A DNA stretch of 64,000 nt from Candidatus Aminicenantes bacterium (GTDB lineage Bacteria > Acidobacteriota > Aminicenantia > Aminicenantales > Aminicenantaceae). Under the pieces are notes generated by a model. The model was not told the DNA's origin. It worked only from the letters and a program-made list of their open reading frames with translations, and made no database searches. Location of the stretch: positions 24,465-88,464 of the forward strand of contig WVZL01000048.1 in NCBI GenBank assembly GCA_011772495.1, given 5' to 3'. The position numbers and the translations under genes were made by a program. Positions 9,650 to 60,743 of this stretch are shown piece after piece (position 1 is the stretch's first letter; each line of letters starts with the position of its first letter).

Positions 9650-10630
9650 TTATTTTTTGATCATGTCGGCGCGGACAAGAATATCAAACCCGTCAAAATA
9701 GTAGCGACGGATTCCTTGGTCTTCGTTGTATTCGTCTCTTCCCGCCATTATCTCTCGAAAAGCCGCAGCCACGCGAGGGATAACTTCACTTTTCACCCAG
9801 GGATCGTTGTGTCCTGAGCAGAGATGGTCGTATTCATTGAGGCGTTCTTCGAGTTTATCAATGGAGGCCAGGTAGTCCTTTATATCCACATCCTCTGGAT
9901 AGGCGTACAGGGGGCCTGGGAAGAATGTATCCCCAGTGAAAAGTATCCGGTTTTTCTTATCCAACAAACACATCGAGCCAGGAGAATGACCGGGCGTATG
10001 AATAACCTCAAGAGAGCGTCTTCCCAGCTCAATCGTGTCACCTTCTTCTAAGAGAGCCGTCGGAGTGACAGGCGGGATTTCCCAGGTTGCAGGATCAAAG
10101 CCTTCGGGCAGAGGCTTCCAGAGGGAATCACCCGTGACGCTTCTTTGAAGGGAGTCGTTATTCATGCCGGAGCGCAGCCTATCGAGGCAAGCAGAGTCAT
10201 TGTAGCAGGCAATTTCTTTGAATTGGTGATTATTGCCGATGTGATCCCAATGTCCGTGGGTATTCACCACCGAAACAGGATGGGAATTCAGCTTGGAGAC
10301 GACCTGTTTGAGGTCTCCAATGCCTGTACCTGTGTCAATAACGACTGCCTTATCGTTCCCGATGACAAGGTAACTGATAGCCTCTTCGAACTGATAGGGT
10401 TCGTAAATAGCATAAGTCGCCTCGAAGAGTTTATAAACCTCAAACCATTCTTGGCCGATTTCCACTTTCTCTAAGGTTGTGTATACCGGGCGAGGAAGTT
10501 TTTCCCACCACTTTTGAGGCTGGATGAGCTCTGAAGTTTTTTCGGTATCGCTTTGTTTTTTTTCTGTAACACAGCTGATCAATACCAGTAAAGCCAATAT
10601 GAGTCCCCAGCTTTTCCTTACCTGTCTCAT
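9650..10630 (-). CDS. Metallo-beta-lactamase-fold hydrolase, probable lipoprotein
   Basis: Lipobox-like LVLISC; THGHWDH, HTPGHSPG, TGDT, SGHN metal-binding motifs. Confidence 0.85.
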   Translation of the reverse strand: MRQVRKSWGLILALLVLISCVTEKKQSDTEKTSELIQPQKWWEKLPRPVYTTLEKVEIGQEWFEVYKLFEATYAIYEPYQFEEAISYLVIGNDKAVVIDTGTGIGDLKQVVSKLNSHPVSVVNTHGHWDHIGNNHQFKEIACYNDSACLDRLRSGMNNDSLQRSVTGDSLWKPLPEGFDPATWEIPPVTPTALLEEGDTIELGRRSLEVIHTPGHSPGSMCLLDKKNRILFTGDTFFPGPLYAYPEDVDIKDYLASIDKLEERLNEYDHLCSGHNDPWVKSEVIPRVAAAFREIMAGRDEYNEDQGIRRYYFDGFDILVRADMIKK

Positions 10631-20079: not shown

Positions 20080-20152
20080 TGGCGAGGGACGGAATCGAAC
20101 CGCCGACGCAGAGATTTTCAGTCTCTCGCTCTACCGACTGAGCTACCTCGCC
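20080..20152 (-). tRNA. tRNA-Phe(GAA), CCA not encoded
   Basis: Minus strand GGCGAGGTAGCTCAGTCGGTAGAGCGAGAGACTGAAAATCTCTGCGTCGGCGGTTCGATTCCGTCCCTCGCCA folds as a cloverleaf with GAA anticodon and TTCGA T-loop. Confidence 0.97.
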
Positions 20153-57058: not shown

Positions 57059-57445
57059 ATGAAAAAAGCTGCCATACTGGTTTTAATCTTGTTTGCCTTG
57101 AGTATGATTCTCATAAGTTTTCTCCTGGCTGGAGACAGTGATGATTACCAAGTCGTCAAGAAAGCAGTCAAAGAGAATCCTAACTACAAACCTGGAAAAG
57201 AAGCGAAGTGGTTTAAGGTGCTGGTAGCTGATAGCAAGACCAATAAAGTGCGAGTGAAAGTCACTTTGCCGATTTCAGTTATCGAGATCTTTCTTGAATG
57301 CGCCGGTGACAAGCATCTGAAGATCGATCATGACGATTGTGAAATCGACCTTAAGGAGGTTTTCAAGGAACTGAAGGAACTCGGCCCCATGGCTTTGATC
57401 GAAGTCCAAGAGGATGATGAGATAGTAAAGATTTGGCTCGAGTAA
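57059..57445 (+). CDS. Exported hypothetical protein, paralogous domain to 54347-54766
   Basis: Signal peptide; VKVTLPISVI...LKELGPMALIEVQEDDEIVKIWLE. Confidence 0.65.
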   Translation: MKKAAILVLILFALSMILISFLLAGDSDDYQVVKKAVKENPNYKPGKEAKWFKVLVADSKTNKVRVKVTLPISVIEIFLECAGDKHLKIDHDDCEIDLKEVFKELKELGPMALIEVQEDDEIVKIWLE

Positions 57446-57480
57446 GATAAGATTCAGCCAGGTATTCGGACTCTATTTCA

Positions 57481-57521
57481 AAAGGGAAACGGAGAGAGAA
57501 ACTCCATTTCCCTTTCTTTTT
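57481..57521 (+). terminator. Intrinsic terminator of the ECF cluster
   Basis: aaagggaaacggag-agagaaa-ctccatttcccttt hairpin followed by ctttttatt. Confidence 0.7.
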
Positions 57522-57605
57522 ATTCAATCGTTTCTCTTAGGGGAGTCTGCAGAAAAGATTTTTTTTAAAAAATTCTTACAAATCCTATTTATTTTATATA
57601 AAATG

Positions 57606-57614
57606 TGGTACAAT
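57606..57614 (+). promoter_or_regulatory. Extended -10 element of RNA unit 1
   Basis: TGgTACAAT after an AT-rich tract homologous to that of unit 2. Confidence 0.55.
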
Positions 57615-57630
57615 AATGATAACGCCTGCT

Positions 57631-57708
57631 GTGCTGGCTGGGCAGGGTTTGACCCTACAATGAACATTCCATAACCCCTTTTGCTTATTTTCCCAAAACA
57701 GCCAGCGC
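57631..57708 (+). ncRNA. Candidate sibling small RNA, unit 1
   Basis: GTGCTGGCTG pairs with CAGCCAGCGC; invariant GCTGGCTGGGCA and CCCTTTTGCTTATTTTCCC blocks. Confidence 0.55.
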
Positions 57709-57775
57709 TTTCCTTCCTTCACTTTTTTCTAGGAATGACGTCTCTTTTAGGGAGTTTTTTTATGAAAGGGAGGGA

Positions 57776-58600
57776 TTATAATTCCAGGGATAAGGCTAGT
57801 TTCTTATCCGATAACAGCAAGCCTATATTTTTTTTTCTTTTATTCGCCAGATATTTTTTCACGGCCAGAAAGCCGAGGTATTTTCCGGCTCGAGGGGGGA
57901 TGCTCAATTCTGAGCTTCCCTTGTGATAGAAATCCATCAATTCCTGTTTGGTGAATGTTCCTGAACCATGGACTTCTTTCAAGTAACGTTCATTTTCCTG
58001 GCACCAGTTTAGTCTGTCTCTGCTGAAGAGAAGATGGTCGTATAATTTAAAGTTGGGGAAGGTTAAGTAGGAGAAACAGGTTGCAATTCCCTCTGAAATC
58101 AAGAGCCACTCTAAATTTTTTCTTTCAGGAACTTCGCCTTTGCTCGAATGCAGAAGAAAATGAGCATACTCATGAGTAAACAGGATTCTCAAGAGCCTGA
58201 AATCATTAAATCTCTCCAGGCCAAAACAAATAACTGGTTTTCTCTTGAATTTAAGAATAAAGCCTTCGGGGCTGAAAAAGCCTATGAGAAGATAGACGTT
58301 TGGCTCTTGCTTAGGAGGAGCAAGCCTTCTACACTTCTGGTAGGCTTCTTTGATTATCTGCTCTGGGGAACAGCCTGAGATGAGATCTCTCAAGAGGGAG
58401 TAATCTGAGGTTTTGATCGATTCCACTCTTTGTTTAAGGCTGGAGAAGTTTATGAACGGGAAGTGAGAAAAGTAATTCTCCAAGAATTCTTTGTGAGGCT
58501 CATAGTAATGAGTTGAATAGATTTTCCACTGTTTTAGATGAGGCATGGTCTTATCCAGGAATATGAAAAAATCCTTGTACAGAGAATAGATTTTCATCAA
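57776..58600 (-). CDS. Predicted Zn-metalloprotease (DUF2268-like, HExxH)
   Basis: LFTHEYAH plus downstream ISEGIA and RAGKYLGF segments. Confidence 0.7.
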   Translation of the reverse strand: MMKIYSLYKDFFIFLDKTMPHLKQWKIYSTHYYEPHKEFLENYFSHFPFINFSSLKQRVESIKTSDYSLLRDLISGCSPEQIIKEAYQKCRRLAPPKQEPNVYLLIGFFSPEGFILKFKRKPVICFGLERFNDFRLLRILFTHEYAHFLLHSSKGEVPERKNLEWLLISEGIATCFSYLTFPNFKLYDHLLFSRDRLNWCQENERYLKEVHGSGTFTKQELMDFYHKGSSELSIPPRAGKYLGFLAVKKYLANKRKKNIGLLLSDKKLALSLEL

Positions 58601-58697
58601 CTCTTTTTTATCATCATTCCTTAGAATGAATCAATCGGACTGGCCATTTTTTTTTAAAAATTATCACTTTAATCCTATTAATTTTATATTTAAAATG

Positions 58698-58706
58698 TGC
58701 TAGAAT
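58698..58706 (+). promoter_or_regulatory. Extended -10 element of RNA unit 2
   Basis: TGcTAGAAT. Confidence 0.55.
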
Positions 58707-58722
58707 ATATGTATATCCTGCT

Positions 58723-58793
58723 GTGCTGGCTGGGCAGGGCTCACACCCTCCTTTAGCACCCTTTTGCTTATTTTCCCTTAAAACAGCCAGCAC
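58723..58793 (+). ncRNA. Candidate sibling small RNA, unit 2
   Basis: Perfect 10-bp terminal stem GTGCTGGCTG/CAGCCAGCAC; same invariant blocks; interior CCCTCCTTT. Confidence 0.55.
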
Positions 58794-58814
58794 TCTCTTA
58801 TAATTATTCAGATA

Positions 58815-58892
58815 GGGGACGGTTCTATTTTTTTATTTTTACCTATATCTCATAGTACAAGGCTCTCTGTTTTAAAAAATAGAACCGTCCCC
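58815..58892. repeat. REP/MITE-like element: 19-bp inverted repeats GGGGACGGTTCTATTTTTT, 40-nt spacer
   Basis: Arms at 58815-58833 and 58874-58892; sits between RNA units 2 and 3. Confidence 0.9.
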
Positions 58893-58961
58893 ATTTTACA
58901 TTTTACACTCTCTTATAATTTGGGCATTATTTAAGCTTGATTTTTTATTTTATTAAAAGTG

Positions 58962-58970
58962 TGCTATAAT
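58962..58970 (+). promoter_or_regulatory. Extended -10 element of RNA unit 3
   Basis: TGcTATAAT (consensus). Confidence 0.6.
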
Positions 58971-58986
58971 ATAAAAAACCATGTTT

Positions 58987-59063
58987 TGCTGGCTGGGCAT
59001 GGTCCCCTTCTTTTAAAACATTTCATAGCCCCCTTTTGCTGATTTTCCCCCGGACAGCCAGCG
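58987..59063 (+). ncRNA. Candidate sibling small RNA, unit 3
   Basis: TGCTGGCTG/CAGCCAGCG stem; GCTGGCTGGGCA and CCCTTTTGCTGATTTTCCC blocks. Confidence 0.55.
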
Positions 59064-59131
59064 CTTTTCTTCTCTGAGGGCGAAATTCCATTTTCTCTGT
59101 TTCTGAGGCTGGTCTTGCGCCCCTTTTCTGA

Positions 59132-59160
59132 TTGACAAACTTTTGTCCTATCTCAATAAT
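59132..59160 (+). promoter_or_regulatory. Sigma70-type promoter of the CoA-ligase cluster, overlapped by a palindrome
   Basis: TTGACA-N17-AATAAT; GACAAA-N2-TTTGTC at 59134-59147. Confidence 0.6.
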
Positions 59161-59183
59161 AAGAGACTGAAAGGAAACTCGGA

Positions 59184-60743
59184 GTGTCAAGACTCTACGA
59201 ATACCAGAGCAAGAAGCTATTGAAAAAGGCCGGGATCCGCATTCCTGAGGGAGGAGTGGCTTCTACCCCAAAGGAGGCTTTGACGATCGCTCAGGAAATC
59301 GGCCGACCAGTGGTGTTAAAGATTCAGGTTTGGGTAACAGGGAGGGCAGGTATCGGAGGCATTCAATTTGCGGACACCCCTCAGGAGGCTGAGAAAGCAG
59401 CGAACCAGATGCTGGGGATGAAGGTGAAAAATTTCACAGTGGATAAGGTCTTAGTCGAGGAAAAACTCCAGATCAAGACCGAGTATTTTACGGGTCTGGT
59501 CATCGACGATTCAAAGAAGTCTCCCCTGCTCGTGTTCAGCTCAGTGGGGGGGACAGGTATCGAGGATATAGCCAAGAATCATCCTAAAAAAATTTCTCAA
59601 ATCTCGGTTGATGTTTCAACCGGTCTCAGGGATTACCAAGCCCGAAACCTCATCCGGAAAGCAGGCTTTTCCGGGAAACTCCTTGTTCAACTGGCAGGGA
59701 TTCTAACCAGACTTTATCGAGTAGCACAAGCCTACGATGCTCGCTCAGCGGAGATAAATCCTCTTGTTCTTACAGAAGATAATCTCGTCTATGCCGCTGA
59801 TTGCCATCTCGTCATCGACGACTACGCTGTTTTTCGACATCCGGAGCTGGGAATAGAGGTAGCCCGGGAGTTTGACCGGCCCCCAACCCCTCTTGAGAAG
59901 ATAGCTTATCAGGCAGAGGAGGGGGATTACCGAGGGACTTTTTATTTTTTCCAGATGGCTGAAAAGATTCCTGAGCAGGAGGATTATATCGGATTTCATG
60001 GAGCTGGAGGAGGCGGTTCTATGATGTCTATGGATGCAGTCCTAGATAAAGGATTCAAACTGGCTAACTACTGCGACACGAGCGGCAATCCTTCAGCCAG
60101 CAAAGTTTACCGGGCAGCCAAGATCATTCTCTCCCAGCCCCATCTTCGAGGCTATTTTGCCTCTGGTTCAGGGGTGGCCAGCCAGGAACAGTACCATTCT
60201 GCCCGGGGAATGGTGAAAGCTTTTCAGGAGGAAAAACTGGAGATTCCTGGCATTATCCGTTTGGGAGGCAATTACGAGGAGAAAGCTATCGAGATCCTCA
60301 AGGCCTACTTGAAGGATATCCCGGCCAAGGTTGAGGGGTACGGGCGGGACGATTCGCCCGAGTTTTGTGCCCAAAGGCTGGAAGAGCTAATAAGGGAAAA
60401 CAAATCTCTCGCCTACAAGGTCAAGCCTTTAACTGAGCCTTCTTTTGGCCCCAAGAGGTACAATTTTGAAACCGTGACCGGTAGGATTTTCTTTGATCAT
60501 CAGAAGTGCCCGAACTGTAAGACCAAAGGATGCATCGAGGCCTGCACAGCTGAGATACTAGAACTAGAAGAGGAAAAACCGGTTCTGGCCGTTTCTGAGG
60601 AAGAGGCAAAAAAAGGGAAATGCACCGAGTGTCTAGCCTGCGAGATCTTCTGCACTTTCCACGAGCAGAAGGCCATTTATATCCAACTTCCCATTCTTGG
60701 ATTAAAGGAATACCGGGAAAAGGTGATCAAAGAAAATAAATAA
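59184..60743 (+). CDS. ATP-grasp acyl-CoA synthetase large subunit (SucC/citryl-CoA synthetase-like) with C-terminal ferredoxin-like domain
   Basis: RLYEYQSK, VLKIQVWVTGRAGIGGI, AEINPLV, GAGGGGS, ANYCDTSGNP; C-terminal CPNCKTKGCIEAC and CTECLACEIFC. Confidence 0.8.
   Translation: MSRLYEYQSKKLLKKAGIRIPEGGVASTPKEALTIAQEIGRPVVLKIQVWVTGRAGIGGIQFADTPQEAEKAANQMLGMKVKNFTVDKVLVEEKLQIKTEYFTGLVIDDSKKSPLLVFSSVGGTGIEDIAKNHPKKISQISVDVSTGLRDYQARNLIRKAGFSGKLLVQLAGILTRLYRVAQAYDARSAEINPLVLTEDNLVYAADCHLVIDDYAVFRHPELGIEVAREFDRPPTPLEKIAYQAEEGDYRGTFYFFQMAEKIPEQEDYIGFHGAGGGGSMMSMDAVLDKGFKLANYCDTSGNPSASKVYRAAKIILSQPHLRGYFASGSGVASQEQYHSARGMVKAFQEEKLEIPGIIRLGGNYEEKAIEILKAYLKDIPAKVEGYGRDDSPEFCAQRLEELIRENKSLAYKVKPLTEPSFGPKRYNFETVTGRIFFDHQKCPNCKTKGCIEACTAEILELEEEKPVLAVSEEEAKKGKCTECLACEIFCTFHEQKAIYIQLPILGLKEYREKVIKENK

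Follow-up and report, generated by a model that had tools for sequence, protein, structure and literature searches.

A predicted family of multicopy small RNAs in Candidatus Aminicenantales, clasped by a pseudoknot around an almost G-free loop

The stretch of DNA analyzed here, hereafter the window, comprises 64,000 nucleotides (nt) of contig WVZL01000048.1 from a Candidatus Aminicenantes bacterium (assembly GCA_011772495.1, positions 24,465 to 88,464 of the forward strand). It carries three plus-strand units with the sequences GCTGGCTGGGCA, CCCTTTTGCTKATTTTCCC and CAGCCAGC, each behind an extended -10 promoter. The gene after unit 1 is DUF2268-like and convergent (57776-58600, minus strand); the next element after unit 2 on the same strand is unit 3, which lies about 110 nt upstream of a citryl-CoA-synthetase-like gene (59184). 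The units are best explained as independent genes, each for a small RNA of about 85-105 nt, and these RNAs belong to an uncatalogued family. The predicted parts of the RNA are two helices, S1 and S2, a long loop, L3, and a pyrimidine tail:

57582-57599, plus strand: conserved promoter box ATCCTATTTATTTTATAT of unit 1, over the -35 region; a degenerate copy of the family box ATCCTATTGACTTTATAA
57606-57614, plus strand: extended -10 TGgTACAAT of unit 1; predicted transcription start at about 57621
57621-57718, plus strand: unit 1 RNA, predicted at about 98 nt; covariance-model match of 87.8 bits, with helix support on 106 sequences
Parts of unit 1: S1 57625-57629/57642-57646; S2 57633-57640/57699-57706; L3 57647-57698; pyrimidine tail from 57707
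58672-58689, plus strand: conserved promoter box ATCCTATTAATTTTATAT of unit 2, over the -35 region; a degenerate copy of ATCCTATTGACTTTATAA
58698-58706, plus strand: extended -10 TGcTAGAAT of unit 2; predicted start at about 58713
58713-58803, plus strand: unit 2 RNA, predicted at about 90 nt; covariance-model match of 103.6 bits
Parts of unit 2: S1 58716-58721/58734-58739; S2 58725-58732/58784-58791; L3 58740-58783, which holds CCCUCCUUU; tail from 58792
58962-58970, plus strand: extended -10 TGcTATAAT of unit 3; predicted start at about 58976
58976-59074, plus strand: unit 3 RNA, predicted at about 98 nt; covariance-model match of 83.7 bits
Parts of unit 3: S1 58978-58984/58997-59003; S2 58988-58995/59055-59062; L3 59004-59054; tail from 59063

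We hold the existence, strand, promoter and fold of this RNA with high confidence. GCTGGCTGGGCA has exact matches at 57633, 58725 and 58988, and the conserved block begins 17-18 nt downstream of each extended -10 box. CCCTTTTGCTKATTTTCCC lies at 57676, 58759 and 59031, always on the plus strand; by chance 0.12 occurrences would be expected, and three were not attained in any of 100 shuffles. The third shared element, CAGCCAGC, occupies 57699-57706, 58784-58791 and 59055-59062. AACATT(C/T)CATA is common to units 1 and 3, and CCCTCCTTT is present in unit 2. An original prediction had picked out the sequence features of the three units, and all of them were found where it had placed them.

Searches against catalogued RNAs returned no relative of the units. 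With Rfam 15 at gathering thresholds, the whole window yielded only a tRNA at 20080-20152, and a cmscan of 57400-59300 with E values up to 10 matched no family. The housekeeping RNAs (6S, signal recognition particle (SRP) RNA, transfer-messenger RNA (tmRNA), Y RNA and RNase P) gave no Rfam hits in the region, and the copy number and subtype diversity of the present RNA are unlike theirs. In the literature that we searched, no paper describes the family and none links Aminicenantes with small RNAs or RNA covariation. The original prediction had proposed individually promoted, non-coding structured RNAs without an Rfam match and had suggested the Rfam scan as a check; the scan, once run, and the promoter counts given below bear this proposal out.

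The window belongs to a 3.28-Mb assembly of 49 contigs, in which a covariance-model search located 10 intact copies. The first model was built from five copies, and an improved model served for the class-wide search described below. In five copies of the genome, namely the three window units and those at C48:157993 and C49:1596, S2 is formed by GCUGGCUG/CAGCCAGC. Five more copies make up a second subtype with a compensated S2, either GCCGGCUG/CAGCCGGC or GCGGGCUG/CAGCCCGC:

Contig C5, 10699-10787, minus strand: second-subtype copy
Contig C21, 140870-140960, plus strand: second-subtype copy
Contig C46, 111738-111822, plus strand: second-subtype copy
Contig C37, 119929-120018, minus strand: second-subtype copy
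Contig C45, 852-942, minus strand: second-subtype copy

Truncated 3' fragments of the GCCGGCUG subtype, with the 5' half gone, lie on C6 near 9936-9950 and on C15 near 10091-10114; both are probably decayed copies.

Every one of the 61 sampled genomes of the order Candidatus Aminicenantales (Acidobacteriota) gave between one and nine matches above threshold. Sampling across the phylum yielded matches in 10 of 301 genomes; a single one of these, from the same class, lies outside the order. In the class-wide sample, the improved model matched 68 of 151 genomes: all listed genomes of the order and all three of one further family, which it is the second subtype that reaches. No listed genome of five other families matched in that search. 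Scanning named genomes for the pattern gave at least 119 stretches. Nearly all of them come from metagenome-assembled genomes (MAGs) that are assigned to Candidatus Aminicenantes, Aminicenantales or Aminicenantaceae, Ca. Aminicenans sakinawicola among them, or that bear placeholder names. Four of these stretches, from Lutimaribacter, Pseudomonas, Lawsonibacter and a Ruminococcaceae MAG, are probably chance matches. Many genomes contain tandem sibling pairs spaced by 120-350 nt, and orthologous copies occupy syntenic sites across genera. The original prediction had called the units sibling copies, as the several copies per genome confirm, and the covariance-model search that it recommended uncovered further copies and covariation in other genomes.

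Helix support was assessed on an alignment of 106 sequences, 105 of them distinct. S2 has 8 base pairs (bp) and is 100% paired. Swaps occur at two of its positions, U-A being replaced by C-G six times and by G-C once, and G-C by A-U once. The S2 counts lean towards the model behind the alignment; the swaps are real letters. The original prediction had described a closing stem of 9-10 bp: the stem is real, and the support extends to only 8 bp, as the proposed ninth pair (U-G/U-A) is unpaired in 54 of the 105 distinct sequences. We therefore rejected the ninth pair, and the tenth with it.

A second, strongly covarying helix, S1, had been overlooked when the scaffold was taken for a simple closing stem. 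S1 pairs the 5' end of the RNA (consensus AAACCUUG) with CAAGGUUU, directly after GCUGGCUGG. It is 94.8% paired, and seven of its nine pairs show changes on both sides; one pair reads C-G 54 times, U-A 26 times and U-G 11 times. Because S1 was absent from the model that made the alignment, its support is independent of the fit. For the structure as a whole, none of 500 shuffles reached the observed percentage paired, the number of cells with both-side changes, the number of further pair types or the covariation score, whereas the count of pairs with a both-side change was matched in one of the 500. Control helices with slid partners were 33-42% paired. Since the 5' strand of S2 lies inside the loop of S1, the fold has the topology of an H-type pseudoknot. 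The lengths of the connecting loops hardly vary, L1 having 3 nt and L2 1 nt in 105 of the 106 sequences, and the stretch entering S2 appears A-rich, like that of classical pseudoknots. S1 and S2 may either coexist or alternate, as the sequence is compatible with both.

Promoters were analyzed in 74 copies with flanks. A TAnnnT hexamer is present in 65 of the 74, with a perfect TATAAT in 43, and at least five of six TATAAT positions match in 61 of 74 copies, compared with 3 of 74 control flanks. The extended TG accompanies 44 of the 65 copies that have a TAnnnT hexamer. In 51 of those 65 the distance from the end of the -10 hexamer to model position 1 is 5-7 nt, a placement by which the RNA begins at the first helix or no more than a few nucleotides from it. 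The promoters fall into two classes. The first is generic, with an A/T-rich upstream tract and TTGATT or TTGCAT, and belongs to the long subtype and to unit 3. The second has the conserved ATCCTATTGACTTTATAA box over the -35 region and belongs to the short subtype; the same box also precedes about 20 short-type copies from other genomes. The ATCCTATTGACTTTATAA box is a candidate binding site for a regulator. It occupies the -35 region across several families of the order (loci including L041, L045, L048, L053 and L054), and in some loci it is palindromic (CCTATTGATTCTATAGG). A similar sequence, CCTATATAAATAGTAGG, precedes the downstream rpoD-like gene.

Downstream of S2 the copies continue with A and C and then with about 10 nt composed of 48% U, 33% C and 5% G, and composition is back to background after position +12. 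At least five U fall within an 8-nt window of the tail in 47 of 74 copies. Transcription most likely ends at S2 and its pyrimidine/U-rich tail of about 10-12 nt. The alternative would be a Rho-dependent stop trimmed back to the pseudoknot. If an 8-bp long-range helix and a tail truly terminate transcription, they would constitute an unusual terminator.

A palindromic element stands between units 2 and 3:

58806-58905, no strand assigned: inserted palindromic repeat that does not belong to the RNA family; arms at 58815-58833 and 58874-58892

This high-copy repeat reads GGGGACGGTTCTATTTTTT...AAAAAATAGAACCGTCCCC, and a search of the genome for its arms gave 128 matches. On either side stands a 15-nt direct repeat, CACTCTCTTATAATT (58791-58805 and 58906-58920), a 15-mer that the genome has at no other place. 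The unique flanking repeat identifies the hairpin at 58806-58905 as an insertion that separates unit 2 from the promoter of unit 3. Without the insertion, about 148 nt would separate unit 2 from unit 3, a spacing like that of other tandem pairs. The element resembles an insertion of the repetitive extragenic palindrome (REP) or miniature inverted-repeat transposable element (MITE) type with a long target duplication. We had considered the hairpin at 58815-58892 as a dedicated terminator of unit 2, and rejected it as this inserted genome-wide repeat.

Such a neighbor, the multiple copies of the element and the two truncated copies in the genome raise the question of whether the units themselves are a non-functional or selfish MITE/REP-type repeat that carries promoter-like sequence by chance. 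We regard this as extremely improbable. MITE and REP repeats are marked by inverted ends, target duplication and non-syntenic insertion; the RNA units have neither terminal inverted repeats nor target-site duplications, and it is the adjoining 58806-58905 element that has the arms and the duplication. The orthologous copies are syntenic across genera, compensatory changes maintain two helices, the element is strand-specific with a precisely placed promoter, and the RNA is kept in all 61 sampled genomes of the order.

The loop that the pseudoknot encloses, L3, is 33-63 nt long (median 47). It consists of 35.5% C, 35.4% U, 23.9% A and only 5.1% G, and RNAalifold found no consensus pairs within it. 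CCUCC, the core of the anti-Shine-Dalgarno (anti-SD) sequence, occurs in 56 of 101 distinct loops; composition-preserving shuffles gave a mean of 19.7 and a maximum of 35. CCCC and UCCC are each present in 95 of the 101 loops and CCCUU in 87, and GGA motifs of the CsrA type are absent from L3. The original prediction had described a C/U-rich, anti-SD-like single-stranded segment on a conserved scaffold, a description that the composition, the CCUCC counts and RNAalifold uphold. A hairpin inside L3, in which GAUAA and UUAUC would present CCCUCCUUC, looked weak by eye, A-U-rich and inconsistent; RNAalifold predicts none, and we treat it as tentative at most.

The 3' end of 16S rRNA reads GGAUCACCUCCU in four complete relatives. 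GGAG or GAGG stands upstream of 37% of crude first-start open reading frames in the window's genome, against a background of 12%, an enrichment indicating that initiation led by a Shine-Dalgarno (SD) sequence is common there.

The sequence of L3 falls into a few subtypes. The loop of the commonest reads ...AACCCUCCUUCAUUAUCCCCUUUUUGCUUAUUUUCCCCAUACCCAAGA in many genera, the core ACCCUCCUUCAUUAUCCCCUUUUUGCUUAUUUUCCCCAUACCCAAGA recurs in many genomes, and the core of unit 3 (AAAACAUUUCAUA) is found again elsewhere (L099, from another genome). A separate conserved loop, CCUACCUUUUUGGUUCC...CCCCCCUUUUGCUGACAA, characterizes the GCCGGCUG subtype. The variable, swappable core of the original prediction is thus replaced by a small set of subtypes that are nearly invariant across genera. 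This bears directly on the idea of a guide-like RNA, whose constant scaffold would load into an effector and whose swappable segment would direct it to nucleic-acid targets. The three window copies, with a constant scaffold and a differing middle, suggest such a system, which we nevertheless consider very unlikely: unlike spacers, the middle segment belongs to cross-genus subtypes and is not unique to each copy; its sequence has little G and low complexity; the loci examined contain no linked effector gene; and complementary targets were not found in the genome. RNAs that guide CRISPR-type systems combine a copy-unique segment with a linked effector, and neither feature holds here.

We then considered the genes around the copies; the transporter, glnA-like and NIF3-like genes below were named by reading their sequences. 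At 16 orthologous loci the long subtype lies 40-120 nt upstream of a major facilitator superfamily (MFS)-like transporter gene, with a conserved promoter-like CTTTACC-N17-TACACT between the RNA and that gene. This box (L005:1766-1800, with equivalents in L010, L014, L020, L021, L031 and others) is far better conserved than the spacer around it. Six loci fall between a glnA-like gene and a convergent NIF3-like gene; together with unit 1 they bring the loci with a convergent next gene to at least seven. Short-type copies have a same-strand gene of 470-500 amino acids (aa) 60-150 nt downstream in 9 of 10 loci. A Pfam scan of six such genes identified three rpoD-like sigma-70 genes, one M16 peptidase and one PilZ-ATPase, and left one without a match. 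At L195, L196 and L199 (genomes G042, G056 and G041, representing two more families of the order) the same-strand gene that follows a short-type copy after 60-90 nt is a primary-like sigma-70 gene (rpoD). Across the loci examined, the RNA genes have no constant protein-coding neighbor.

Two further observations concern the gene upstream of unit 1, which encodes 128 aa (57059-57445). Just past it, at 57481-57515, a 14-bp hairpin (AAAGGGAAACGGAG/CTCCATTTCCCTTT) is followed by CTTTTTATT and is probably the intrinsic terminator of this gene. The same 128-aa gene also adjoins the RNA in another genome (L007).

This neighborhood is where a cis-acting leader has to be weighed, that is, a riboswitch or attenuator in which the pseudoknot is an aptamer and S2 with its U-rich tail a conditional terminator of the downstream gene. 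The fluoride (RF01734), SAM-II (RF00521) and preQ1-II (RF01054) aptamers do share with our RNA a compact H-type pseudoknot, short connecting loops of invariant length and an A-rich stretch into the second stem. A U-rich tract follows S2, and most examined loci have a same-strand gene 40-150 nt downstream, among them the 16 MFS loci, the three rpoD genes identified by Pfam, and unit 3 before ccsA. Yet none of the three aptamer models, nor any other Rfam riboswitch, matched here at E values up to 10. The third loop of our RNA is long, variable and unstructured; at 33-63 nt, and with a sequence that differs by subtype, it is unlike a ligand pocket. The copies have strong promoters of their own and are many per genome, and the genes that follow them are functionally unrelated and form no single class (MFS, rpoD, ccsA, M16 peptidase, PilZ-ATPase). 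Unit 2 precedes another RNA gene, the next gene is convergent in the seven or more loci noted above, and a separate conserved promoter-like box, CTTTACC-N17-TACACT, stands between the RNA and the MFS gene. We consider a cis-acting leader improbable.

The reading that we favor, with roughly even confidence and by analogy to known systems, is that the units are sibling trans-acting small RNAs that mask purine-rich ribosome-binding sites, built on a new pseudoknot scaffold. Each RNA has a strong sigma-70-type promoter, with S1 beginning at the predicted start itself (long type) or about 3-5 nt later (window units). Hairpin S1 arises when the first 6-9 nt pair with bases 17 nt further on; its loop carries GCUGGCUG, which pairs with CAGCCAGC at the 3' end as S2. 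The resulting H-type pseudoknot locks both ends of the RNA, and this clasp probably shields it from exonucleases. The pseudoknot displays the 33-63-nt L3 with its C/U-rich blocks CCUCC(UU), CCCCUUUU and UUUUCCCC. As L3 is nearly without G, it is unable to fold on itself. Up to this point the scheme follows from the alignments, promoter placement and loop composition; the 3' end, the action in trans and the targets are inferred. The blocks would pair in trans with purine-rich SD regions and so block translation initiation, with the subtype-specific parts of L3 giving the siblings overlapping but distinct sets of targets. An Hfq-like protein may assist.

Two groups of characterized RNAs provide the analogy. 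RsaE/RoxS (RF01820), from Bacillales, is like our family a clade-wide small RNA with repeated unpaired C-rich motifs. Those motifs bind G-rich SD regions and repress translation, and the regulon centers on genes of the tricarboxylic acid (TCA) cycle (PMC6158497). Unit 3, for its part, precedes a citrate-cleavage-type operon. The differences from RsaE/RoxS are equally clear: there is no sequence or model match to it here (cmscan of 57400-59300, E up to 10), and RsaE has two hairpins and a normal terminator hairpin, whereas our RNA joins its 5' and 3' ends in an H-type pseudoknot and has no separate terminator hairpin. RsaE is also usually single-copy, compared with 1-10 copies per genome here, and it comes from a different phylum. 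LhrC1-5 of Listeria and the csRNAs of Streptococcus form the second group. Like our units, they are several siblings, some of them in tandem, with promoters of their own and a shared regulatory box. In the five LhrC copies, redundant CU-rich (UCCC) motifs in loops and linkers bind SD regions (PMC4132741). We found no homology to LhrC, which consists of stem-loops and a terminator hairpin in place of our pseudoknot scaffold and its far longer loop, 33-63 nt and almost without G. As is characteristic of multicopy small RNAs such as LhrC, Qrr and the csRNAs, homologous copies are present within a genome, each with its own promoter. The kind is already known, namely multicopy C-rich small RNAs that mask SD sequences; what is new is the pseudoknot clasp, the loop almost without G, and the universality in the sampled order.

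Several observations weigh against trans-acting small RNAs. RNAduplex comparisons of seven L3 loops with 800 crude start regions gave energies only about 0-1.3 kcal/mol better than those for gene interiors or reversed loops. A k-mer search of the genome (at least 12 nt) returned no convincing complementary site near a start codon. The complementary stretches of 15 nt or more were the antisense strands of the RNA genes, one or two 15-16-nt matches far from any start, and the 3' fragment of a copy. Nearly all of the 50-nt loop in the commonest subtype is unchanged from genus to genus, which exceeds the need of a short seed and hints at a protein partner or tertiary contacts. A canonical, separate terminator hairpin is absent after most copies, S2 directly preceding the pyrimidine tail. 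Finally, a gene on the same strand lies 40-150 nt downstream of about three quarters of the copies examined, which makes some cis role possible.

The near-invariant loop leads to the most substantial of the alternatives, a protein-binding or protein-sequestering RNA in which the pseudoknot is a stable handle and the C/U-rich loop a platform that titrates or delivers a protein with a preference for pyrimidine-rich single strands. Candidates would be an Hfq-like protein, ribosomal protein S1, a KH-domain protein or Rho, which loads at C-rich, G-poor sites. L3 of the common subtype is nearly invariant over its 50 nt and S2 is invariant in sequence, L3 has only 5% G, and the clade-wide universality is as expected of a core ribonucleoprotein; a long RNA target was not found in the genome. 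Candidate partners exist. The Pfam model recognizes a divergent Hfq-like gene in 40 of 41 Aminicenantales genomes, and there is a KhpA-like gene as well; tblastn found no Hfq, CsrA or ProQ. Sister orders have Hfq to the same degree while lacking the RNA, so the two show no phyletic link. The RNA genes have no consistently linked protein gene, and the lack of GGA motifs in L3, along with the failure to find CsrA and ProQ, also counts against a protein partner of that type. The diversification of L3 into subtypes within a genome fits diversification of targets better than a single protein site. We consider a protein-binding role possible, though rather unlikely.

A bolder extension of these ideas, which we put forward as somewhat more doubtful still, is that the RNA, with an architecture of a new class, acts as a global regulator or as a ribonucleoprotein that defines the clade. 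The clasp would then serve both as end protection and as terminator, and the almost G-free loop would be a platform of CCUCC resembling the 16S tail. Such a platform could compete with ribosomes for SD sequences genome-wide, or trap a pyrimidine-binding factor such as Rho, ribosomal protein S1 or Hfq, and the siblings, under their two promoter classes, would adjust translation or termination globally as different signals arrive.

In structure, the family represents a design unlike the usual seed plus terminator hairpin, with a pseudoknot joining the 5' and 3' ends around a long, almost G-free loop. Aminicenantes are abundant uncultured bacteria of sediment and subsurface whose regulation is little understood. 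The covariance model is ready for annotating their genomes and for reading metatranscriptomes. Because every sampled genome of the order carries the RNA, with several strongly promoted copies, it is probably among the most abundant transcripts of Aminicenantales and a central regulator in these organisms.

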